The position numbers and the translations under genes are program-made. This document shows positions 34,668 to 60,557 of a stretch of DNA of 64,000 nt, one piece after another (position 1 is the first letter of the stretch; each line of letters begins with the position of its first letter). Under the pieces are notes generated by a model, which saw only the letters and a program-made list of their open reading frames with translations, made no database searches and had not been told where the DNA came from. Origin of the DNA: an uncultured Gammaproteobacteria bacterium (GTDB lineage: Bacteria; Pseudomonadota; Gammaproteobacteria; SZUA-140); contig CAZASZ010000003.1 in NCBI GenBank assembly GCA_964487925.1, forward strand, positions 738-64,737, given 5' to 3'.

Positions 34668-37511
34668 ATGATTGATATTAAGACCACACAACGACACTTT
34701 TTGGCCCTCAACCAGGAACGTCTCCGACGGACCAGCGAGGCGCTACGTCGCCGCCACAGGGAGGCCCTGGATATACTGCCCCTGCTCTTTCATGCCAACC
34801 ATCCGACCTTTCCGGGCTATATATCGCCCAATACCCCCAAAGGGGTCGCGAATTATATCCCGTCCCAACGCAGTCTCGATGCCGCCGCCCGGTTCGTCAA
34901 AGAATTTGACTATAAACGTCGTGCTCAGCCGAGATACGATATCCACGCAATCTTTTTGATGGGCAGCAGTGGCACCATCGCACATTCGGAAAAGAGCGAT
35001 TTCGATATCTGGCTCTGTCACTCGGACCACCTCAACTACGAGCAGCTGAGCGAACTCCAGGCAAAGGCGCACGCCATTGAACAGTGGGCCGAACAAATGG
35101 ATCTGGAGATCCACTTTTTTCTCATGAATGCGCGGGCATTCTCCAACGGTGAAGGCGTCGAGCTCTCAAGCGAAAGTAGCGGCAGCGCCCAACATCACCT
35201 GCTGCTGGACGAATTCTATCGCACAGGCCTTATCATCGCCGGACGTACCCCAATATGGTGGCTGATTCCCGTAGAAGACGAATCCAACTACGAGACGATC
35301 GTCCATAAACTTATTCAAAAAAAGACCGTGATCGAAAACGAGGTCATCGATTTTGGCGGTCTGCCCGAGGTCCCAGCCGCGGAATTCTTCGGCGCTTCGC
35401 TCTGGCAACTCTACAAAGGTATCGACTCACCCTATAAATCAGTCCTCAAGATCATGCTGCTCGAGGTCTATGCCGCCTGCTATCCGCGTCTGGAACTGTT
35501 GAGTCTGCGTTTCAAGAAGGCAATTCACGACGGTGAAACTGAGCTCGCGAAACTCGACCCTTACATCATGCTCTACAACGAAATCGCCGAATATCTCGAG
35601 GCCTGCGAAGACACCGAACGGCTTGAATTGCTGCGGCGATGTTTCTACATGAAGGTCAATGAAAAGCTAAGCCTGCCCGACGACCTTAAGAACCCGAGCT
35701 GGCGTAGGGAGACCCTGCACGAGATGGTGGAATCATGGGGCTGGGGCGCCGGCGAATTGCTCGAACTCGACAACAGGCCCCAATGGCGCATCGAGAAGGT
35801 CATAAAGGAACGCCGCAGCCTCGTCGCCGCCCTGACGCAAAGCTATAATGCCCTGTCCGATTTCGCTCGGACCCACAATAATCTAGCAATGATCAAACAG
35901 GATGATCTCAACACATTGGGCCGAAAGCTCTACGCTGCGTTCGAGAAAAAACCCGGCAAGATTGATCTGATCAACCGTGGGATTAGCGACAGCATCCAAG
36001 AACCGGCACTGTCGCTACATGAACATAGCGCCGCCGGCCAGTCCCACTGGTTGTTGTATCGTGGCATCGTCAACCGCGACGACGCCCTCGATCTCGCGCC
36101 GCTGCACCGTTCTCCAACCGTGATCGAAATGCTCAGCTGGTGCCACTTCAACCAAATCAACAATGAGCAAACGGCCTGGGCCATCCATGTCTTGGACGCG
36201 AACTTCAATATCAAGGAGGTCAGAGGGCTCCAGACCATCCTGAGTCATCACTTCCCGAACGGGCTTCTGAACTTCGGGCAAGAACCAGACGTCACACGAG
36301 CCAGGGCCATGGTTTCGAGCACCGTATTCGCGAACGTCTGCGCGGAGCTTCCACAGGATCACATCCGGCGTGGACATTGTCTGACCAGCGACAAAACGGA
36401 CGCATTGAGCTTTGGGGGGATCAGCGAGAACCATATTATTTCGCTTGACCAAGTCGTCCAGACCAGCTGGAACGAGGTCATCACTTCCCATTACAGTGGC
36501 GTACAGGGCATCCTGGACTGCCTGCGCGACAACCTTAGGTGGTCATCCATTGAGGGCAAGGACAGCCATTGGACCGCGCCGACATGTCACTGCTCGTCCA
36601 TCGGACATGGGGTTTCGATCTCACGCCGGGTCAACAATCTGCTCCGGGACGTCGAAGCGGCCCTCGGTGGCGGTGGCACCGGCGCAAACCCGAATCGCTA
36701 TGTCCTGACCATCGGGCGCGACATGTATCTTCTTTGGCGCGACGTCAACGGCATGCAATCGCAAAAACTGGAGTCCTACCAGGAGCTCGTTCAGTATCTC
36801 GGAGACGTTCTGGCCTACTACAGTCCCGTGGTGTTCGATCGCTACACGTTGCCGAAAGACGTGCTACCGGCAATCTACCATCACCACGAGGCAGGCAAAA
36901 TCCATGTGTACTATGTGAACCTACGCAGCAAGACTCGGCTCTTTATCATCGACGAAGGCGGCACCTTGGTGTGCCAGACAGTACCAACTGACAACTCTGC
37001 CCTGTCCTTGCATCGCTACGTCACATTCCTGAAACAATGCAAACTCTTGGCTGGCCAGGAACCGGCCCCACTATGGGGTCATCCGGAGATCGCGTGCTTT
37101 CAGGTCAAGGCCGATCAGCGCTCGGATATCGTGCTGAGCCCGGCGCCCGCCACCGCACGCCACGTGTCCGAAAATGAGACCCGGATACTCGCGTTGTCGG
37201 TCGAGAGTCACGCCGATGCGGATGAGCGCCCGACCTTTTCCATACAGTGCGGGGACAAGACCTTTGCATCGCACCAACTGGGCGATAAGATGTTCCGGGA
37301 ACTCGCGCTCCACCTCATGACTCACGCCGACCGTGATCCGGGATATCCCTTGCGGATCACTTCCTTGGAAGCAATGCCGCGTTCGCTCGGTACCGATACA
37401 TCCACGGGTATCCGCATGAGTCATTTCCTGAACTATCGCATGCGCATCGAAAAACGTATCGATCACGCACTTATGCTGTTACAGGAAGAAAAAAAGGACC
37501 AAGCCGTGTGA
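34668..37511 (+). CDS. cyaA: class I adenylate cyclase
   Basis: 947 aa. The N-terminal catalytic region (ALDILPLLFHANHPTFPGYISPNTPKGVANY; FLMGSSGTIAHSEKSDFDIWLCH) matches enterobacterial-type CyaA, followed by a long regulatory domain. Confidence 0.93.
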   Translation: MIDIKTTQRHFLALNQERLRRTSEALRRRHREALDILPLLFHANHPTFPGYISPNTPKGVANYIPSQRSLDAAARFVKEFDYKRRAQPRYDIHAIFLMGSSGTIAHSEKSDFDIWLCHSDHLNYEQLSELQAKAHAIEQWAEQMDLEIHFFLMNARAFSNGEGVELSSESSGSAQHHLLLDEFYRTGLIIAGRTPIWWLIPVEDESNYETIVHKLIQKKTVIENEVIDFGGLPEVPAAEFFGASLWQLYKGIDSPYKSVLKIMLLEVYAACYPRLELLSLRFKKAIHDGETELAKLDPYIMLYNEIAEYLEACEDTERLELLRRCFYMKVNEKLSLPDDLKNPSWRRETLHEMVESWGWGAGELLELDNRPQWRIEKVIKERRSLVAALTQSYNALSDFARTHNNLAMIKQDDLNTLGRKLYAAFEKKPGKIDLINRGISDSIQEPALSLHEHSAAGQSHWLLYRGIVNRDDALDLAPLHRSPTVIEMLSWCHFNQINNEQTAWAIHVLDANFNIKEVRGLQTILSHHFPNGLLNFGQEPDVTRARAMVSSTVFANVCAELPQDHIRRGHCLTSDKTDALSFGGISENHIISLDQVVQTSWNEVITSHYSGVQGILDCLRDNLRWSSIEGKDSHWTAPTCHCSSIGHGVSISRRVNNLLRDVEAALGGGGTGANPNRYVLTIGRDMYLLWRDVNGMQSQKLESYQELVQYLGDVLAYYSPVVFDRYTLPKDVLPAIYHHHEAGKIHVYYVNLRSKTRLFIIDEGGTLVCQTVPTDNSALSLHRYVTFLKQCKLLAGQEPAPLWGHPEIACFQVKADQRSDIVLSPAPATARHVSENETRILALSVESHADADERPTFSIQCGDKTFASHQLGDKMFRELALHLMTHADRDPGYPLRITSLEAMPRSLGTDTSTGIRMSHFLNYRMRIEKRIDHALMLLQEEKKDQAV

Positions 37512-48179: not shown

Positions 48180-48308
48180 TAGAGGTCTCGTATGGCCTTA
48201 CGATATAGAGTAATTGAAGCATTCTAGCATCACCCGGGGAAATCCAAAGCATATGCACAATCCGAGCGATCACAAGGATCACTCGTTGGACATTTATATG
48301 GCGTCAAT

Positions 48309-48322
48309 GGCATGTGCCATAA
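48309..48322. promoter_or_regulatory. perfect 14-bp palindrome ATGGCATGTGCCAT in a divergent intergenic region
   Basis: Seen directly in the sequence between the 165-aa gene (minus strand) and the kinase gene (plus strand). Candidate dimeric-regulator operator; alternatively, if the long upstream start is real, it lies inside the kinase N-terminus. Confidence 0.35.
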
Positions 48323-48396
48323 TGCTCGGGACGGAACCTGAGTCCGCTTTCCAAACGAATTTGTCGCATTCAGAGCCAAGTACCGGGACACCCGAG

Positions 48397-49938
48397 ATGC
48401 CAAACGCCCTCATCGACGCGCTGCAGGACCCGACGCTCTACGATCATCCCGTGACCGCTTTCCAAGTCATCGAGACCCATAGCTCATGGGTCCTCCTAAC
48501 AGGCCTCATGGCCTATAAAATCAAGAAACCCATCGACCTGGGGTTCCTGGACTTCTCGTCCCTAGAGAAGCGCCATACCGACTGTCTGGAGGAAATCCGA
48601 CTCAACCGCCGTCTGGCCGAATCGCTCTACCTGGACGTCGTGCCCATTACCGGAATCCCCGAGAAGCCCCGCCTCGGCGGGACGGGTACCGCCATAGAAT
48701 ACGCCGTACGGATGCGGCAGTTCGATCCGGAGACTCAGCTCGATGTGCTAATTGAAAAAGGCGAACTGACGGCGGCAATCTGTCGACGCCTCGCGAAACG
48801 CATCGCTCGCTTCCACGCTGACTGTCCGACGGCACAGGAAGACAGCGACTTCGGCCAACCCGAGGCCATCCGCCAAGCTGTCTTCGACAACTTCATCCAC
48901 CTCGCTGAGATGGACATCCGCGTTGAAGAACGGGCGCATATTGACGACATACACACCTGGACGCGGACGCAACACGAGCGACTGGCGGCTTCGTTTGCCA
49001 ACCGACGCGCCGCCGGCCATATACGCGAATGCCACGGTGATCTGCACCTAGCCAACATCGCGCTGATCAACGGTGATCCCTTACCCTTCGATTGCCTGGA
49101 ATTCAACCCCAATCTACGCTGGATAGACACCATGAGCGAGATGGCTTTCCTGGTAATGGACCTCGACCGGCGCTGCCGAGCCGACTTGGCTCGCGTAACC
49201 CTGAATGCCTACCTAGAGGCGGGTGGGGACTATGAGGGCATTACCCTGTTTCGATACTACGCCGTCTATCGCGCCATGGTTCGGGTCAAGGTGGCCGCGA
49301 TCCGTCGCACTCAGGCCGGCGCTGACGAGCTCGAAGCCCTGAGCCGAGAGATCAGCGCCGGCCTCAAACTCGCGCAGCGGTATACAATGCCCACAGAAGG
49401 TCGCCTGATCCTTACCCACGGACTATCCGGATCCGGCAAAAGCTTGGTCTCGGCCAAGCTCCTGGCAGAGGCCGACATCATCAGGACCCGCTCAGACGTC
49501 GAGCGCCGGCGCTTGTTCCCCGAATCGGCCGGACGTTATTCCGCTGCGGCCAGCCAAGCCACATATGCGCACCTGACCCATGTCGCAAAGCACATCATCA
49601 AGGCTGGGTACAGCGCCCTGATCGATGCGACCTTCCTGAAACAGACTCAGCGCGCCGGTTTTATCGCCTTAGCCGAAGCATTGAATTGTCCCCTGGTTAT
49701 CCTTGACCTACAGGCGCCCGAAGAACTGTTGAGACAGTGGATACGTGAGCGCGCGCTCCGTGGCGGCGATCCCTCGGAGGCCGACGAGGCCGTGCTCACT
49801 CGTCAAATACAGACTTACGACCCCCTCAGCAACGGGGAACTTCGCTATGCGGTGAGCGTAGATACCAGTCAAACGATCGACGCCGGGGCACTCGCCGAGG
49901 CAATTCTCTCGCCAACCCACAAGAATGGCGCCGATTGA
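48397..49938 (+). CDS. bifunctional aminoglycoside-phosphotransferase-like / P-loop kinase protein
   Basis: N-terminal APH/protein-kinase-like fold with HGDLHLANI (the catalytic HGD...N motif). C-terminal P-loop NTPase GLSGSGKSL (AAA_33/zeta-toxin-like kinase). Start chosen at MPNALIDAL (513 aa); the ORF is open back to 48214. Confidence 0.65.
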   Translation: MPNALIDALQDPTLYDHPVTAFQVIETHSSWVLLTGLMAYKIKKPIDLGFLDFSSLEKRHTDCLEEIRLNRRLAESLYLDVVPITGIPEKPRLGGTGTAIEYAVRMRQFDPETQLDVLIEKGELTAAICRRLAKRIARFHADCPTAQEDSDFGQPEAIRQAVFDNFIHLAEMDIRVEERAHIDDIHTWTRTQHERLAASFANRRAAGHIRECHGDLHLANIALINGDPLPFDCLEFNPNLRWIDTMSEMAFLVMDLDRRCRADLARVTLNAYLEAGGDYEGITLFRYYAVYRAMVRVKVAAIRRTQAGADELEALSREISAGLKLAQRYTMPTEGRLILTHGLSGSGKSLVSAKLLAEADIIRTRSDVERRRLFPESAGRYSAAASQATYAHLTHVAKHIIKAGYSALIDATFLKQTQRAGFIALAEALNCPLVILDLQAPEELLRQWIRERALRGGDPSEADEAVLTRQIQTYDPLSNGELRYAVSVDTSQTIDAGALAEAILSPTHKNGAD

Positions 49939-50119
49939 TTCACGACAGCATGACTCCCGGTGATTGGTCAAAGCTGTCCCTAAGCATTCATCATGCACTC
50001 TGCTATACTCCGACCTCCCGTCGCCACCGATTTTGGGGATGGTCGGCGAACGAATTCGTTAACGGTCGGGAGATCGGCGCTCGCGACCCGCCTTTTTCAC
50101 ATAAAAATCAGGAGGCAAT

Positions 50120-51337
50120 ATGTCCAAACTCGTCAAACCACACGGTGGTGGTGAACTGCACCCCCTCTTGCTCACCGACCAGGATCTCGAGGCGGAGAAG
50201 GCGCATGCCGCCACGCTTCCCCAGGTTAGAATCGGGTCTCGGGAGACCGGCGACCTCATTATGATGGGTATCGGCGGTTTCACCCCGCTGACCGGCTTCA
50301 TGACCCATGCCGATTGGGAAGGCGTCTGCGACGGGTACCGTATGGTCAGCGGGCTGTTCTGGCCGATTCCGATTACGTTGTCCACCGACCAGGCCACCGC
50401 CGATACGCTCAACACGGGCGCGGAGATTGCCCTAGTCAGCGATGAGACCGGCGAGATCATGGCGACCATGCAGCTGACCGAAAAATACACCATAGACAAG
50501 GCTCATGAGTGTATCTCGGTCTTCAAGACTACCGACGAGGCCCATCCTGGCGTCAAGATGGTCATGGAACAAGGTGAGGTCAACTTGGCCGGTCCGGTCA
50601 AAGTCCTGTCCGAGGGCGATTTCGCTGAACGCTTCCCAGGCATCTACATGACGCCTACCCAAACCCGCGCCCTGTTTGAAGAGAAGAACTGGAATACGGT
50701 CGCGGCCTTTCAAACCCGCAACCCCATGCATCGCTCGCACGAGTATCTGGCTAAGATCGCTGTCGAGACCTGTGATGGTCTGCTGATCCATTCGCTGCTC
50801 GGTAAACTCAAGCCCGGTGACATCCCCGCCGAGGTCCGCAGCGACGCCATCAACGCACTGGTGGATAACTATTTCGTCGACAACACCGTCGTCCACGCCG
50901 GTTATCCGCTCGACATGCGCTACGCAGGTCCCCGCGAAGCCCTGCTGCATGCGCTATTCCGCCAAAACTACGGCTGCTCGCACCTCCTGGTAGGCCGTGA
51001 TCATGCCGGTGTCGGCGACTACTACGGCCCCTTCGATGCTCACCACATCTTCGACGATATCCCGGCCGATGCCCTCGAGACCCAGCCGATCAAGATCGAC
51101 TGGACCTTCTGGTGCTATCGCTGCAACGGCATGGCTTCTATGCGGACCTGCCCGCATGGCGGCGAGGATCGTCTGATGGTATCAGGCACCAAGCTGCGCA
51201 AGGCCCTCTCCGAAGGCGAGGAAGTCTCTCCCGAGTTCAGCCGTCCCGAGATCCTCGACATCCTGCGCGCCTACTACGCGGGCATTGATCCCGAGAACCG
51301 CGTCGAGGTCAAACTCAGCGGCCATTCGGCGCGCTGA
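50120..51337 (+). CDS. sat: sulfate adenylyltransferase, homo-oligomeric Sat type (ATP sulfurylase)
   Basis: 405 aa. [13 protein letters not shown] (the QTRN...H..H ATP sulfurylase motif) and [17 protein letters not shown] 7 nt upstream. Confidence 0.92.
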
Positions 51338-51356
51338 TCTGCCTTCTGCTATACAC

Positions 51357-51379
51357 GGGGCCGGATATCACCCGGCCCC
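51357..51379 (+). terminator. stem-loop downstream of sat (possible terminator)
   Basis: GGGGCCGG-ATATCAC-CCGGCCCC hairpin 20 nt after the sat stop. There is no clear U-tract, so it may be a Rho-dependent or weak site. Confidence 0.35.
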
Positions 51380-51462
51380 GTCCTTGCGGGGTGTGCACCC
51401 GTTCGGGACCCTGCTACAATCCTAGGCAATTCCAGTGTTTCTAGTCGATACTTAGGGGTGAC

Positions 51463-52830
51463 ATGCAAGCGTCCATCATCGATTCCGCCTACGAGCTCCT
51501 CGACGAAACCATCCTCTACCACAATGGCCAGCCCGTAGGTACGACGGCGGCGGTCCCCAGCAATCTCTCGGCCGTCAATTACGGCGACTGTTTTATTCGC
51601 GACTTCTTTCCCTCCGCACTTGTCTTTCTCATGAAGGGCGAACCCGAAATCGTCCGTAACTTCCTGACCACTGTGCTGTCCCTATGCGATCAGCAGGAAC
51701 ACATGCCCGGCCATGAATATGCGGAAGGCCTGATGCCGGCCAGTTTCGAGGTCGCAGCCACCGAGGATGGCGGCAGCAAGCTCGTGGCTGACTTCGGTGA
51801 TCGCGCCATCGGTCGCGTAGCGCCCGTGGACTCGGCAACTTGGTGGATGATCCTGCTCCGGGTCTACTCACTGGCAACCGGGGACATCGAGCTGGCGCAC
51901 AGTGAACGCTTCCAGGAAGGCATGCGCAAGGTCCTCGGGCTCTATCTGCATGAGAGCTTCGAGATATCCCCGGCCATGCTGGTACCGGACGCAGCTTTCA
52001 TGATCGATCGCCGGATGGGGGTTTACGGCCACCCACTCGAGATCCAGGCACTGTTCTACGGCATGCTGGCCACGGCCCAGGAACTGCTACTACCCGGACC
52101 GAAGAACGACGGCCTGCTGCGAATCATCAACAAACGCATGCCGGCGCTCTGCTCCTATGTCCGACTGTTCTATTGGCTCGACGAACAGCGCCTCAACGAG
52201 ATCCACCGCTACAAGTCCGAGGAGTTCGGCTGGGACGCGCAAAACCTGCTCAATATCTACCCCGAAACCATACCGGACTGGCTCGACGGCTGGCTGTGCC
52301 GTAACGATGGCTACATGGTCGGCAATATCGGTCCCGGTAAAATCGACTTCCGTTATTTTGCGGGCGGCAACCTGCTCGCAATCATCTTCGGGCTTACGAC
52401 CGACGCGCAGGGCGACATGATCATGCGCCTCTACGAATCACACTGGGACAGCCTAACCGGCCGGATGCCGTTCAAACTCGTCTACCCGGCGGTGAGCGGT
52501 CAGGAGTGGGCCCTGCTGACCGGATGCGACCCAAAGAATTCGCCCTGGTCCTATCACAACGGCGGTAACTGGCCCTGCCTACTCTGGATGTTTACCTGCG
52601 CGGCCATCCGCACGGGGCACGCCGATCTGGCGGCGCGGGCCGTCGAGGTTGCCGCGGCGCGTCTGCAGCGGGACCACTGGCCCGAATACTATGATGGCCA
52701 GATGGGCTCACTGATCGGTCGCCGTGCCAACCTGAACCAGACCTGGACCGCGACGGCGCTGATTATCGCCCATCAGCTACTCGACAATCCGGATAGCCTG
52801 GCCGTCTTCGAGGCCCTAATCAGCACATGA
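51463..52830 (+). CDS. alkaline/neutral invertase, glycoside hydrolase family 100
   Basis: Hallmark GH100 blocks: FIRDFFPSALVFL, DFGDRAIGRVAPVDSATWWMILLRVY, FMIDRRMGVYGHPLEIQALFYGML and YHNGGNWPCLLWMF. Size 455 aa, similar to cyanobacterial InvA/InvB. Confidence 0.85.
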   Translation: MQASIIDSAYELLDETILYHNGQPVGTTAAVPSNLSAVNYGDCFIRDFFPSALVFLMKGEPEIVRNFLTTVLSLCDQQEHMPGHEYAEGLMPASFEVAATEDGGSKLVADFGDRAIGRVAPVDSATWWMILLRVYSLATGDIELAHSERFQEGMRKVLGLYLHESFEISPAMLVPDAAFMIDRRMGVYGHPLEIQALFYGMLATAQELLLPGPKNDGLLRIINKRMPALCSYVRLFYWLDEQRLNEIHRYKSEEFGWDAQNLLNIYPETIPDWLDGWLCRNDGYMVGNIGPGKIDFRYFAGGNLLAIIFGLTTDAQGDMIMRLYESHWDSLTGRMPFKLVYPAVSGQEWALLTGCDPKNSPWSYHNGGNWPCLLWMFTCAAIRTGHADLAARAVEVAAARLQRDHWPEYYDGQMGSLIGRRANLNQTWTATALIIAHQLLDNPDSLAVFEALIST

Positions 52831-53639
52831 TCGCTATCAGCCAACTTCGTTTGCCCGCCGTTTCACCGGAGGGAATGCACGCCATTGACCTGCTCAACCA
52901 GGACGAACCCGACATCCGCGCGCTGACCGAGTGCATCCTCCGCGATTCGATCAGCGCGCTGGCACTGATCAAGTACGCCAATTCACCGCTCTTCCGGCGC
53001 CCCACGCCGATCGACTCCGTCCATGGCGCCATCCGCGTCCTCGGACTCCGAAACGTCCGTAGCGCCTTACTCGTCGCGACCATTCGCGGCCTGGCTGAAA
53101 ACCTACCACAGAACTGCTGGATCATCGCACGACACTGCACCGACTGCGCCTTCCTGGCCGCGCGTTTGGTCCAAAATATTCAACCCGAGATCGTCGACGA
53201 GATGGCCTTTCTGGGCCTGATCCATGACATGGGCATGCTGATTCTGGCAAGCAACTTCCCTGAAGCCTATAGCCGGATCATGGACCTCTCGATCAGCGAG
53301 GGTGAAGTCATCGGCAACCTCGAAGAGGCCGAGTTCGGGGTACAGCATGATGACATCATCGAACGCCTCTTCAAGGATTTTCGGCTACCCGTTGAGCAGA
53401 TCAACCTGCTGTCGTGTTACCACCGTGAGGTCTGTTTGCCCGATGACGACCCGCAACTCATTCGCCGCATGGTCCTCGACCTGGCCCACGCCATCTGGAC
53501 CGACAGCCTCGGTGAGATAGCCTTCCACGAGACCTGCGGGGATCAGGACATCGAAGGACTCACAGCCCGACTCGGGATCATGCCCGACGACCTGACGGCT
53601 ATACGGGACGAGTACATAAGACTCAAAGACGCAAGCTGA
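52827..53639 (+). CDS. HDOD-domain signalling protein (stand-alone)
   Basis: 270 aa. HD-related output domain pattern (...GLIHDMGMLILASNFPE...HCTDCAFLAARL...). The start codon overlaps the invertase stop (ATGA). Confidence 0.7.
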   Translation: MIAISQLRLPAVSPEGMHAIDLLNQDEPDIRALTECILRDSISALALIKYANSPLFRRPTPIDSVHGAIRVLGLRNVRSALLVATIRGLAENLPQNCWIIARHCTDCAFLAARLVQNIQPEIVDEMAFLGLIHDMGMLILASNFPEAYSRIMDLSISEGEVIGNLEEAEFGVQHDDIIERLFKDFRLPVEQINLLSCYHREVCLPDDDPQLIRRMVLDLAHAIWTDSLGEIAFHETCGDQDIEGLTARLGIMPDDLTAIRDEYIRLKDAS

Positions 53640-53700
53640 TATTGGCCGGGCGCGCACTATACACGCCCCACAGTCCTCTTTAACGAGGTATGGAAGAACA

Positions 53701-54501
53701 ATGTGTCCGCCCCGCACCCGAAGTAAACGGCCCACGAAAACGTTCACTACCCACCTGTTCCTAATTTGCGCCCTATTAATCCCGAGCTTCTCCTACGCCG
53801 ATGGCCTGGTACTCGAGGTCATCCCGCTCCACCACCGCTCCTCGTCAGCGATCGCGCCCATGGTCCGTGGCTTCATCGCCAAGGGTGGGACCATCAAGGC
53901 GGCCGACGACAAACTCATGGTACGCACGAATCCGAGCAACCTGAAAGAACTGCGCAAACTCGTCGCCAAATTGGATGTACCGCTGCGCCACCTGCTCATC
54001 ACGGTGAGACAATTGTCAGGTGAACGCGCGCGGCGAGCGGGGACGGTCGGTGAACTCCGTGTCTGGCAAACCGAGAATTCTGACGACGCCAACCGGACAC
54101 AGCAGGTTCAGGTGCTGGAAGGCAAGGAGGCCTTTATCGACGTGGGCCGCGAGATCCCCATCAGCGACTTTGCCGTTTCGCAATCGCAAACCGGGACGAT
54201 TTTCGAACAAAAAACCCGCTATATCGGGGCGACTACGGGGTTCTCCGTCCGCCCTCACCTCGATGGCGATACCGTGAATATCGATATTACCGCCACTCAA
54301 AAACGCCAATCCGGCGTCGCTTCACCACCTGAGTTCGAGACCCAGGCGGTACATACCACCGCATCGGGAAAATTGGGCGAGTGGATAACCATCGGAGCCA
54401 GCGCTGCGCGGGAAAGGACCCCAGGAATCATCGATTATTCGACCTCAAAGCGGGACGAACAGGACCGACGGACGCTGCTGAGAGTGACCATGTCCCCATG
54501 A
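53701..54501 (+). CDS. secreted secretin-N-domain protein lacking the pore-forming secretin C-domain
   Basis: Signal peptide (LFLICALLIPSFSYA|DG). Then LVLEVIPLHHRSSSAIAPMVRGFIAKGGTIKAADDKLMVRTNPSNLKELRKLVAKLDVP, a classic secretin N1-type module. The C-terminal part (GFSVRPHLDGDTVNIDITATQ...) resembles only the first strands of a secretin domain. 266 aa in total. Confidence 0.6.
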   Translation: MCPPRTRSKRPTKTFTTHLFLICALLIPSFSYADGLVLEVIPLHHRSSSAIAPMVRGFIAKGGTIKAADDKLMVRTNPSNLKELRKLVAKLDVPLRHLLITVRQLSGERARRAGTVGELRVWQTENSDDANRTQQVQVLEGKEAFIDVGREIPISDFAVSQSQTGTIFEQKTRYIGATTGFSVRPHLDGDTVNIDITATQKRQSGVASPPEFETQAVHTTASGKLGEWITIGASAARERTPGIIDYSTSKRDEQDRRTLLRVTMSP

Positions 54502-54514
54502 GCCAATTCTTTGC

Positions 54515-55102
54515 TCAGTTGTCAGCAGATGCCTTGTTTGAGCTCATCGTTTTTCGGTCGGAATCTTCTGCCTCCGTCCTCCGGGGCCGATAGCGACGAA
54601 CCTTGCCGCTATCTGAATACTTGGCATCGTACATCGCTTGATCCGCCAGACTGATCAACCCCGCAGCATTCTCGCTGTCATCCGGATATATCGAGTAACC
54701 CATGCTGACTTCCACGTTAATCACGTGTCCATCGATTTCCAAGGGCTGATTTAAAGTATTGATCATTCGCTCCACGGCCGGAAGCACCTCGCTTTCGTCC
54801 TCTAGCTCGCTGAGCAAGACAATGAATTCGTCGCCGCCAAGTCGCGCCACCGTGTCACCGCCCCGAACAGAAGTCCTGAGACGTCGCGCAACCTCTATGA
54901 GTACGCGATCGCCGGCGGCATGGCCGAAATTATCGTTAATCGGTTTGAAGTTATCCAGGTCGGCAAAACAGACCACCAACAAACGTCTAGTGCGGGCGTT
55001 TCGGGCAATGGCCAAGTTGAGGCGGTCAAACATCAGGGTACGGTTAGGCAGTTGTGTTAGCGCGTCGTGATAGGCCTTGCCCAAATGAGGCAACGTCGAC
55101 AA
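54515..55102 (-). CDS. minimal diguanylate cyclase (GGDEF domain only)
   Basis: DALTQLPNR start of the GGDEF domain at residue 13; GGDEF active site (RLGGDEFIVLL); I-site-like RxxD (RGGD). 195 aa with no sensor domain. Confidence 0.85.
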   Translation of the reverse strand: MSTLPHLGKAYHDALTQLPNRTLMFDRLNLAIARNARTRRLLVVCFADLDNFKPINDNFGHAAGDRVLIEVARRLRTSVRGGDTVARLGGDEFIVLLSELEDESEVLPAVERMINTLNQPLEIDGHVINVEVSMGYSIYPDDSENAAGLISLADQAMYDAKYSDSGKVRRYRPRRTEAEDSDRKTMSSNKASADN

Positions 55103-55163
55103 AACTCCAGGTCAATTGAGATTCTGCTCCTAAACCACCAATAAACTTCCGATAGAACAGATT

Positions 55164-55194
55164 GAAAAAAAGGGCCTCAAATGAGGCCCTTTTT
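55164..55194 (-). terminator. intrinsic terminator of htpG (bidirectional hairpin)
   Basis: AGGGCCTCA-AA-TGAGGCCCT, flanked by AAAAAAA on one side and TTTTGG on the other. On the minus strand the hairpin is followed by UUUUUUU, 37 nt after the htpG stop. Confidence 0.8.
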
Positions 55195-55230
55195 GGTTGA
55201 AGACTCCGAAGAATCTCTACTATTTCGGTT

Positions 55231-57150
55231 TTAGCCCGCCATACGATGCAATAAACCGTTGAGGCGTTTTACGAACAGAGCCGGGTCCTCAAGCTGACCG
55301 CCCTCGCTGAGCAGGGCTTGATCGTGCAGGATGTGGACCCAGTCGGCGAAACGTTCCTCGTCCTGCTCGTCACGCACACTCGCCATCAGTGGATGCTGCG
55401 GGTTGACCTCAAGGATGGGCTCGCTGTTCGGGACGGCCTGCCCTGCCGACTCCAACATACGGCGCAGATTCAGAGCCATCTCGTCCTCTTCAACAACCAG
55501 ACAGGCCGGCGAGTCGGTCAGACGATCGGTCACACGGACCTCCTTGACCTGATCACCAAGCACCTCTTTCATGCGCGTCGTAATGTCTCCGAGTTCGTCG
55601 GCGGCCTGCTTGCGGGCCTCCTTTTCAGCCTCGTCCTCGAGCTCGCCGAGTTCAAGATCGCCCTTGGCAACCGAACGCAATTGCTTGTCGTCGAAGGCAT
55701 CTAGCGCGGTCAGCATCCAGTCATCTACCCGCTCATGCATGAGCAGAACCTCAATGCCCTTCTTCTTGAAGACCTCAAGGTGCGGGCTGTTGCACGCCGC
55801 CGTCAGGCTGTCTGCGGTGATGTAGTAGATCTTGTCCTGACCTTCCTTCATGCGCGAGACATAATCGGCGAGCGATACGTCCTCGGCATCGCCTTCGGAA
55901 GTCGTCGACGTGAAGCGAAGCAGACCGGACAGCGTTTCTTTGTTGGCGGAGTCCTCGACAATGCCTTCCTTAAGGACACGGCCGAACTCCTTCCAAAAGC
56001 TCTGATACTTCTCGGCGTCATCCTTGGCCATACTGGAGAGCAGCCCCAGGACCTTCTTGACCGAGGCAGCGCGCATGACGTCGATCTGACGGTTGTTTTG
56101 CAGGATCTCGCGCGATACGTTGAGCGGCAGGTCATCGGAGTCGATGACGCCACGAATGAAACGCAGGTAACGCGGCATCAGCTGCTCGGCGTCTTCCATG
56201 ATGAAGACGCGGTGGACATAAAGTTTGATGCCGTGACGCTGCTGCTGATCCCAAAGGTCGAATGGAGCCCGTTTCGGGATAAAGAGCAGCGAGGTATAAG
56301 ACTGGCGACCCTCGGTGCGGGTATGCACCCAGGACAGCGGGTCTTCGAAATCGTGGCCGACATGCTTGTAGAATTCGCCGTATTCCTCGTCCGTGACCTC
56401 TGACTTGGGACGCGACCACAGGGCCGAGGCCTGATTCACGGTCTCGTATTCTGCTTTCTCTTCCGCAGTATCGTCCGCCTCCTCCTCGGTCGCCTCATCG
56501 GCGGCGGCCTTCATGTTAATGGGTAAGGCGATGCTATCGGAATATTTGCGCACGACGGTACGTAGGCGGTAGCCCTCAAGGAATTCTTCCTCATCCTTAC
56601 GCAGGTGCAGCGTAATTCGGGTCCCGCGCTCGGCGCGTTCAATGGTCTCGAGCGAATAACTGCCCTCGCCTTCCGACTCCCAGCGCACACCGTGCTCGGC
56701 ACCCAGTCCGGCGCGGCGGGTCTCCAACGTGACCTTGTCGGCCACAATAAAACTCGAATAGAAACCGACGCCGAACTGGCCGATCATGCGCGCATCCTTG
56801 GCCTGATCCCCACTCAGGGAATCAAGGAACTGGCGTGTGCCCGAGCGAGCGATCGTACCGATATTGTCCATGACCTCTTGGCGGTTCATGCCGATGCCGT
56901 TATCGGTGATGGTCAGCGTTCGGGCCTCCTTGTCGATATCGATCCGCACATTGAGCTCACTCTGACCTTCATAGAGGGCGTCATCGGTCAGGGCCTCGAA
57001 GCGCAGCTTGTCGCAGGCATCGGCTGCATTGGATAACAGCTCGCGCAGAAAGATCTCCTTGTTCGAATAGAGGGAATGGATCATCAGATGCAGGAGCTGC
57101 TTGGCCTCGGTCTGAAAATCCAGCGTTTCTCTGTGAGTCTCTATGGTCAT
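55231..57150 (-). CDS. htpG: molecular chaperone HtpG (Hsp90)
   Basis: 639 aa. GHKL ATPase N-domain ([24 protein letters not shown]...) and canonical HtpG middle and C domains. Confidence 0.97.

Positions 57151-57420: not shown

Positions 57421-60557
<3,137 letters not shown>

Follow-up and report, generated by a model that had tools for sequence, protein, structure and literature searches.

A 64,000-nucleotide stretch of DNA from an uncultured gammaproteobacterium (GTDB lineage SZUA-140; GenBank assembly GCA_964487925.1, contig CAZASZ010000003.1, forward-strand positions 738 to 64,737), here called the window, was analyzed around two plus-strand genes that overlap by four nucleotides. The first (51463-52830) encodes a cytoplasmic neutral/alkaline invertase of glycoside hydrolase family 100 (GH100; 455 amino acids, Pfam PF12899) and the second (52827-53639) a stand-alone, all-helical HDOD protein (270 amino acids, Pfam PF08668). 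Each gene is an ordinary member of a known family and is already so named in public annotation. The novelty appears to lie in the conserved, non-obligate operon-like pairing of invertase and HDOD genes within one gammaproteobacterial clade; the pairing appears undescribed, and a literature search found no paper mentioning HDOD together with invertase.

The invertase and HDOD gene products

The GH100 protein matched the PF12899 profile (Glyco_hydro_100) from position 1 to 435 of 435 (E 4.9e-187, 622 bits against a cut-off of 23.6), and the four sequence blocks of the family were located at residues 44, 117, 180, and 364. The family assignment and the full set of motif blocks, both claimed by a reading made from the sequence only, without database searches, were thus confirmed. 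Matches in the PDB comprised the invertases InvA (5GOO/5GOR; E 1e-159, 535 bits), InvB (5Z73), and AtCINV1 (6TTJ). Identity to InvA amounted to 52% over 441 residues, which implies that the protein adopts the same (alpha/alpha)6-barrel fold. The residues reported as catalytic in InvA are Asp188 and Glu414 (PMC6995568, a secondary source). They align with Asp182 (52006-52008) and Glu408 (52684-52686) of the window protein, and both residues were invariant in 80 of 80 relatives.

A difference from the solved enzymes was found at residue 423. InvA, InvB, and AtCINV1 carry arginine at this position, whereas the window protein has asparagine (Asn423, 52729-52731), as does each of the 80 gammaproteobacterial relatives. 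The local motif reads GRRAN in the gammaproteobacterial proteins and GK(E/Q)AR in the three solved invertases; two arginines close by, Arg420 and Arg421, are conserved. The corresponding Arg430 of InvB has been reported to assist the catalytic glutamate by way of its deprotonation. The position was treated as auxiliary rather than family-defining, that is, as a lineage feature that provides no argument against GH100 membership; the exchange could alter the pH optimum or the activity. No NCBIfam model covered either the GH100 or the HDOD protein. The sole NCBIfam match of the GH100 protein, to glucosylglycerate hydrolase (NF047898), reached 31 bits where the cut-off is 550, and this identity was rejected.

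The HDOD protein matched PF08668 over residues 17-199 (E 1.9e-30, 106 bits against a cut-off of 22.9), in agreement with its earlier assignment as a stand-alone HDOD gene. Both family matches exceed by far what chance would produce. Its nearest solved relatives by sequence were MmoQ (3LJX, E 1.3e-11) and the Geobacter sulfurreducens protein 3HC1 (E 1.4e-10). An AlphaFold model built on a 33-sequence alignment (pLDDT 89.7, pTM 0.87) was all-helical, with 15 helices. The top eight Foldseek matches of this model were chains from six solved HDOD structures, led by SadB (9QZK, TM-score 0.76), 3HC1, and 3MEM, while HD-GYP enzymes ranked much lower (Bd1817, TM-score 0.34-0.39). As evident from the 33-sequence alignment, His103 (53133-53135), His133-Asp134 (53223-53228), His174 (53346-53348), His199 (53421-53423), and His221 (53487-53489) are invariant, and four of these positions (His103, His133-Asp134, His174, and His199) align with His/Asp residues of 3HC1. 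The pocket of 3HC1 holds two iron ions through five histidines and one aspartate (PMC12075610). The five invariant histidines and one aspartate of the subfamily match this di-iron pocket in composition, whereas MmoQ and SadB are degenerate at the pocket positions. Thus, the protein was regarded as an HDOD protein that retains a putative metal site. The subfamily is narrow: of 12,982 HDOD-like proteins found in 1.84 billion, 20 representatives (50% clustering) reached E 1e-30, and the close relatives all measured 245-295 amino acids.

The two genes share the tetranucleotide ATGA (52827-52830), in which the HDOD start codon (ATG, 52827-52829) overlaps the GH100 stop codon (TGA, 52828-52830) on the same strand. 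In an alignment of 28 orthologues the conserved HDOD N terminus (M-x-I/V-x-I-S/N/D-Q-L...) fell exactly at ATG 52827, showing that the overlap, as read earlier from the sequence, is real. A GAGG sequence lies at 52810-52813, 13 nucleotides upstream of this start. Met17 (ATG 52875), which has GGAGGG one nucleotide upstream, was considered as an alternative start and rejected, since the N termini of the orthologues match Met1.

The invertase gene is preceded by a Shine-Dalgarno-like AGGGG (plus strand, 51454-51458), four nucleotides upstream of its ATG. Inspection of the 125-nucleotide spacer that separates it from the upstream gene sat (ATP sulfurylase; 50120-51337, plus strand) revealed two further elements on the same strand. 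A GC-rich hairpin at 51357-51379, 20 nucleotides past the sat stop codon, consists of a perfect all-GC 8-bp stem (GGGGCCGG / CCGGCCCC) and a 7-nucleotide loop and has no T-run; it was missed by a simple terminator scan. The hairpin may serve transcript termination or processing between sat and the invertase unit and may thus mark the 5' boundary of the unit. The only candidate for a promoter element was a -10-like hexamer, TACAAT (51415-51420), which has a weak -35 match and fell below the threshold of the sigma-70 scan. A scan of positions 50000-55300 for sigma-70 promoters and intrinsic terminators detected no such sites between, or just after, the GH100 and HDOD genes; its counts did not exceed the shuffled expectation, so that the scan is uninformative either way.

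Conservation of the pair and its genomic context

ORFs (open reading frames) were called in the 80 closest genome loci and searched with hidden Markov models built from the GH100 and HDOD families. An HDOD gene of the 270-residue type was the immediate downstream same-strand neighbor of GH100 in 27 of the 80 loci and, after clustering of all neighbors, the most conserved one. In the reciprocal test on metagenome contigs, 53 (79%) of the 67 members of the HDOD subfamily with a readable upstream region had GH100 directly upstream. Loci of both sets are designated below by L numbers. The pairing is therefore not unique to the genome of the window. A neighbor-joining tree placed the HDOD-linked GH100 proteins in one large clade of closest relatives (about 63% identity or more to the window protein) with scattered losses of the HDOD gene.

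The distance between the two genes ranged from -4 to 90 nucleotides in 27 of 28 pairs, the window included, with a median near 30. The individual values were -4, -4, 0, and 5, then mostly 24-90, with a single value of 202. The ATGA overlap of -4 nucleotides is found in the lineage of the window (window, L005, and L084) and in a few other loci (L117, L118, and L127), while most relatives have a spacer of 5-90 nucleotides. Thus, the translational coupling proposed for the window holds as an overlap in its own lineage and these few loci, but the general feature is a tight, co-oriented, operon-like pair and not coupling as such. The flanks of the pair varied in at least 10 contexts, among them sat...secretin-like, hemH...NUDIX or S4-htpG-pgm, MerR...ABCF, and several unique ones.

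A second, independent arrangement was observed in L014 (8413-9900), L018 (8327-9799), L027 (1670-3748), and L040, where a gene for a longer HDOD protein of 490-690 residues immediately precedes GH100 on the same strand. This sublineage lacks the downstream 270-residue HDOD gene, and the rest of the long protein is unannotated. In L015 and L036, an EAL-HDOD protein is encoded two genes downstream of GH100.

GH100 itself turned out to be more common in this part of the bacterial tree than the sporadic proteobacterial occurrence assumed at the outset. A scan of species-level genomes with two conserved peptides found relatives in at least 530 of them, and more than 4000 protein clusters were matched, the best of which were annotated as proteins of Gammaproteobacteria metagenome-assembled genomes. 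Proteobacterial GH100 homologues have been noted previously (PMC10661998). The closest 80 genomes belong almost entirely to sulfur oxidizers (Thiohalophilus, Thiohalomonadaceae, Ectothiorhodospiraceae, Thioalkalispiraceae, Thiogranum, and Acidiferrobacterales), plus one Nitrospina. One locus, L057, is a 2319-nucleotide contig (JABDRC010000345.1) binned as "Halobacteria archaeon" that encodes a GH100 protein 59% identical to the gammaproteobacterial one; contamination of the bin is the most likely explanation, not an invertase of archaea.

In more distant relatives, those with about 62% identity or less, a cluster of zwf, pgl, and genes for sucrose-phosphate phosphatase (SPP), sucrose-phosphate synthase (SPS), and a PfkB kinase has GH100 at its end. 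The SPS of these clusters carries a C-terminal SPP-like domain, Thiohalophilus thiocyanatoxydans DSM 16326 (L081) is among the loci, and some of them hold two GH100 paralogues. The paralogues flank the SPP, SPS, and PfkB genes in the Thiohalophilus-type loci L076, L079, L081, and L083 (about 5-11.4 kb) and in L056; the larger cluster of these loci reads c12-pgl-GH100-SPP-SPS-PfkB-GH100. Links to sucrose genes also occur within the HDOD-linked clade: the gene order in L034 and L038 is GH100-regulator-SPS, and in L006 (GH100-HDOD-ABCF-regulator-PfkB) a PfkB kinase gene stands three genes past the HDOD gene. The placement of GH100 orthologues in sps/spp/fructokinase clusters ties the family to the turnover of sucrose as a compatible solute in halophilic sulfur oxidizers. 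Degradation of self-made sucrose is hence a sensible reading of the role of the window invertase.

Other signaling genes recur beside GH100. A gene for a Hpt phosphotransfer protein of about 115 residues directly follows GH100 in six cluster-type loci (L064, L068, L070, L072, L077, and L078) and represents a second kind of signaling gene in this position; a gene for a methyl-accepting chemotaxis protein is near in several of these loci (L072, L077), and sister loci without Hpt also carry a receiver-SpoIIE protein. In L030 (11735-14617) and in L016, which has the same layout, an OmpR-type regulator is followed by a CBM9-containing histidine kinase near GH100. This pair may be a sugar-sensing two-component system. 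The regulator that stands between GH100 and SPS in L034 and L038 is of the same OmpR type.

In the window, the HDOD gene is followed at a distance of 61 nucleotides by a short secretin-like ORF (53701-54501, plus strand, 266 amino acids; Pfam and NCBIfam matches) with a Secretin_N domain, a partial Secretin domain, and a hydrophobic N terminus. Its length is far below that of normal secretins. It is possibly a third gene of the unit. Among the loci compared, this ORF (cluster c61) is restricted to the window and its closest relative, L005, and therefore lies outside the conserved pair. A stand-alone GGDEF gene (54515-55102, minus strand, 195 amino acids) is convergent with the invertase-HDOD-secretin-like unit and lies 13 nucleotides from its end; the product, a diguanylate cyclase without a sensor domain, retains its GGDEF motif intact and has an RxxD inhibitory site five residues before it. 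Farther downstream lie htpG (55231-57150, minus strand) and pgm (phosphoglucomutase; 57457-59088, plus strand; Pfam PGM_PMM I-III), followed at greater distance by glycolate-oxidase-like genes. The pgm gene does lie downstream as had been pointed out, at 4.6 kb from the HDOD gene instead of 5 kb, and is context only: together with htpG it forms a block found after the pair in several relatives; this synteny was seen in L005, L011, L012, L019, L023, L031, and L150.

The 28 larger ORFs of the window were scanned with Pfam. No SPS, SPP, or sucrose synthase was found among them, as the sequence-only reading had stated for SPS and sucrose synthase, and no canonical sucrose cluster, in which genes for SPS, SPP, sucrose synthase, or fructokinase adjoin the invertase, was recognized. 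Core chromosomal genes fill the remainder of the window (glmS, glmU, the atp operon, a type II secretion operon, rho, hemXY, argH, cyaA, and others), and the whole window contained neither tRNA genes nor Rfam matches. Also noted on the plus strand were genes for a class I (enterobacterial-type) adenylate cyclase (34668-37511) and a 574-residue protein with an APH-like phosphotransferase region and a C-terminal AAA_33 kinase domain (48214-49938).

Interpretation of the pairing

What is established is which families the two genes belong to, that the catalytic residues are present, that the genes overlap, and that the pair is conserved. Building on this, we consider it somewhat probable that the two genes form an operon whose HDOD product either regulates sucrose hydrolysis or transmits a signal from it; co-transcription, the substrate, and an interaction between the two proteins are inferred. 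According to this proposal, both ORFs would be expressed as one operon in a marine or halophilic sulfur-oxidizing gammaproteobacterium. The cytoplasmic invertase would hydrolyze sucrose to glucose and fructose by means of the Asp/Glu pair of (alpha/alpha)6-barrel enzymes. Sucrose serves bacteria of this group as a self-made compatible solute and carbon reserve, and the invertase would set the rate at which this pool drains into central metabolism. The HDOD protein would be made from the same transcript and, in the lineage of the window, probably also by termination-reinitiation at the ATGA, which would provide invertase and HDOD protein in roughly matched amounts. Its signaling role is assigned by analogy with its family. 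Most likely it would serve as a partner of the sensor or adaptor type, binding a metal or small ligand through the five-His, one-Asp pocket. It would then either modulate the activity or stability of the invertase or report the status of sucrose breakdown to other signaling, possibly related to cyclic di-GMP (c-di-GMP). An adaptor role has a precedent in the best structural match, because SadB acts as an adaptor for proteolysis.

Several observations weigh against this proposal. Genes for sucrose synthesis were not found among the ORFs scanned in the window, the catalysis-linked arginine of InvB is replaced in the whole set of gammaproteobacterial GH100 enzymes, and to our knowledge no enzyme of this group has been assayed. 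No GH100-HDOD fusion was present among the best 150 of the 12,982 HDOD relatives. Furthermore, the link is not obligate, as each gene was found without the other. The 14 HDOD loci without upstream GH100 fall into three clades. In the basal one, the HDOD gene is preceded by a gene for an HD-GYP-like protein. In the second (L086, L088, L091, L093, L094, L096, L098, and L128), hemH lies directly upstream of the HDOD gene and GH100 was absent within 6 kb; because relatives show hemH-GH100-HDOD at the same position, GH100 was probably lost here and its HDOD partner kept. The third (L108, L125, and L126) is nested beside a GH100-linked member. Conversely, several GH100 genes within the HDOD-linked clade lack the HDOD partner, and a gene for an OmpR-type response regulator comes next in its place. 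A backbone of hemH...HDOD...htpG-pgm recurs in several groups, so that part of the conservation signal may represent inherited synteny.

This raises the question of whether inherited synteny could be the whole explanation, with the HDOD protein serving an unrelated signaling pathway (c-di-GMP, motility, or biofilm formation) and merely sharing a promoter or neighborhood with the invertase in one clade. Such an explanation is the main alternative, though we judge it rather unlikely. It would account for the persistence of the HDOD gene without GH100 at the same hemH-flanked position, for the persistence of GH100 without the HDOD gene, and for the HD-GYP-like neighbor of the outgroup HDOD members. 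GGDEF or EAL genes are, moreover, situated near the pair in the window and near GH100 in the L015-L029 group, and the known HDOD proteins SadB, GsmR, and HdpA act in the control of motility or biofilm formation. Binding of c-di-GMP has been reported for SadB of Pseudomonas fluorescens but was not found for SadB of Pseudomonas aeruginosa. On the other hand, the pair has outlasted the rearrangement of both its flanks, keeping to one strand throughout and to a distance below 100 nucleotides in nearly every case. An independent arrangement, with the long HDOD protein encoded upstream of GH100, exists as well. HDOD genes generally make up a small fraction of any genome, and the frequency of GH100 immediately upstream of this one narrow subfamily (53 of 67) speaks against shared neighborhood alone.

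A more specific form of the proposed regulatory link would make the HDOD protein a subunit dedicated to regulating the invertase and roughly stoichiometric with it; the HDOD protein would sense metal, redox state, or a nucleotide via its pocket and switch sucrose breakdown on or off post-translationally. We regard this version as doubtful, and clearly less likely than a regulatory or signaling link in general. If it were true, a stand-alone HDOD protein would gain a defined molecular target. The GH100 sequences were compared in this respect: only four positions (146, 224, 228, and 450) separate HDOD-linked from unlinked proteins, and as these track the phylogeny, they provide no evidence of an interface.

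The invariance of the complete H...HD...H...H...H set within the subfamily also invoked the idea that the HDOD protein is an active metal-dependent phosphohydrolase acting on a phosphorylated sugar or nucleotide messenger of the same pathway. The set indeed resembles the di-iron site of 3HC1 and differs from the degenerate sites of MmoQ and SadB. Nevertheless, such an activity is improbable, given that the HDOD domain has been described as devoid of phosphodiesterase activity (PMC6543031), that the invertase reaction yields no phosphorylated intermediate, and that the modeled protein resembles HDOD structures and not HD-GYP enzymes such as Bd1817. The least probable of the alternatives, and in our view a remote one, is that the GH100 enzymes of this clade act on another alpha-glucoside (glucosylglycerate, glucosylglycerol, or another compatible solute): Asn423, weak precomputed matches to the related MGH1-like and GDE_C families, and the lack of sucrose-synthesis genes among the scanned ORFs would fit, but the full-length similarity to the sucrose-specific InvA, the very low score with the glucosylglycerate hydrolase model, and the SPS, SPP, and fructokinase genes adjoining orthologues all point to sucrose.

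The association of a narrow HDOD subfamily with a well-understood and easily assayed enzyme makes the pair a tractable system for studying how HDOD proteins sense and act. It offers a useful way into HDOD function but leaves the picture of either family unchanged, and neither gene would be surprising alone. GH100 is common in marine and halophilic sulfur-oxidizing Gammaproteobacteria, either within sucrose-synthesis clusters or beside regulatory genes (HDOD, Hpt, or OmpR-type), and its placement bears on how chemolithoautotrophs manage the carbon pool held in compatible solutes.

Comparison with characterized systems

The window invertase resembles InvA and InvB of Anabaena/Nostoc PCC 7120 and CINV1 of Arabidopsis in its full-length homology, its catalytic Asp and Glu, and the conserved blocks. 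It differs from them in its gammaproteobacterial host, in having GRRAN in place of GK(E/Q)AR with Asn423 at the position of InvB Arg430, and in its pairing with an HDOD gene. With the sucrose cluster of T. thiocyanatoxydans DSM 16326 (L081), the window shares an orthologous GH100 gene (about 58% identity) and the same broad group of organisms. Through clusters of this type, GH100 is connected with the synthesis of sucrose and with hexose catabolism. Unlike the zwf-pgl-spp-sps-fructokinase-GH100 clusters, however, GH100 of the window clade stands outside an sps/spp cluster and has the HDOD gene next to it, whereas the gene after GH100 in cluster-type loci often encodes a Hpt or DUF2288 protein.

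As for the HDOD protein, 3HC1 of G. sulfurreducens is likewise a single-domain protein of similar size (Foldseek TM-score 0.67). The second histidine of the "HH" pair of 3HC1 is arginine in the window protein, which has a different invariant histidine, His221. SadB of P. aeruginosa, the closest structural match, has been described as an adaptor for AmrZ proteolysis that consists of a YbaK-like and an HDOD domain, and it offers an example of an HDOD domain that acts via protein-protein contacts. SadB differs in its additional N-terminal domain, in the absence of most pocket histidines, and in its occluded pocket; it functions independently of a ligand and has no link to a glycosidase. The best PDB match by sequence, MmoQ from the soluble methane monooxygenase locus of Methylococcus (3LJX/3P3Q), was deposited as a response regulator, carries AD in place of HD, and has no histidine at the position of His103, unlike the single HDOD domain of the window. 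With respect to gene arrangement, MmoQ is an HDOD protein encoded beside the enzyme system that it helps control.

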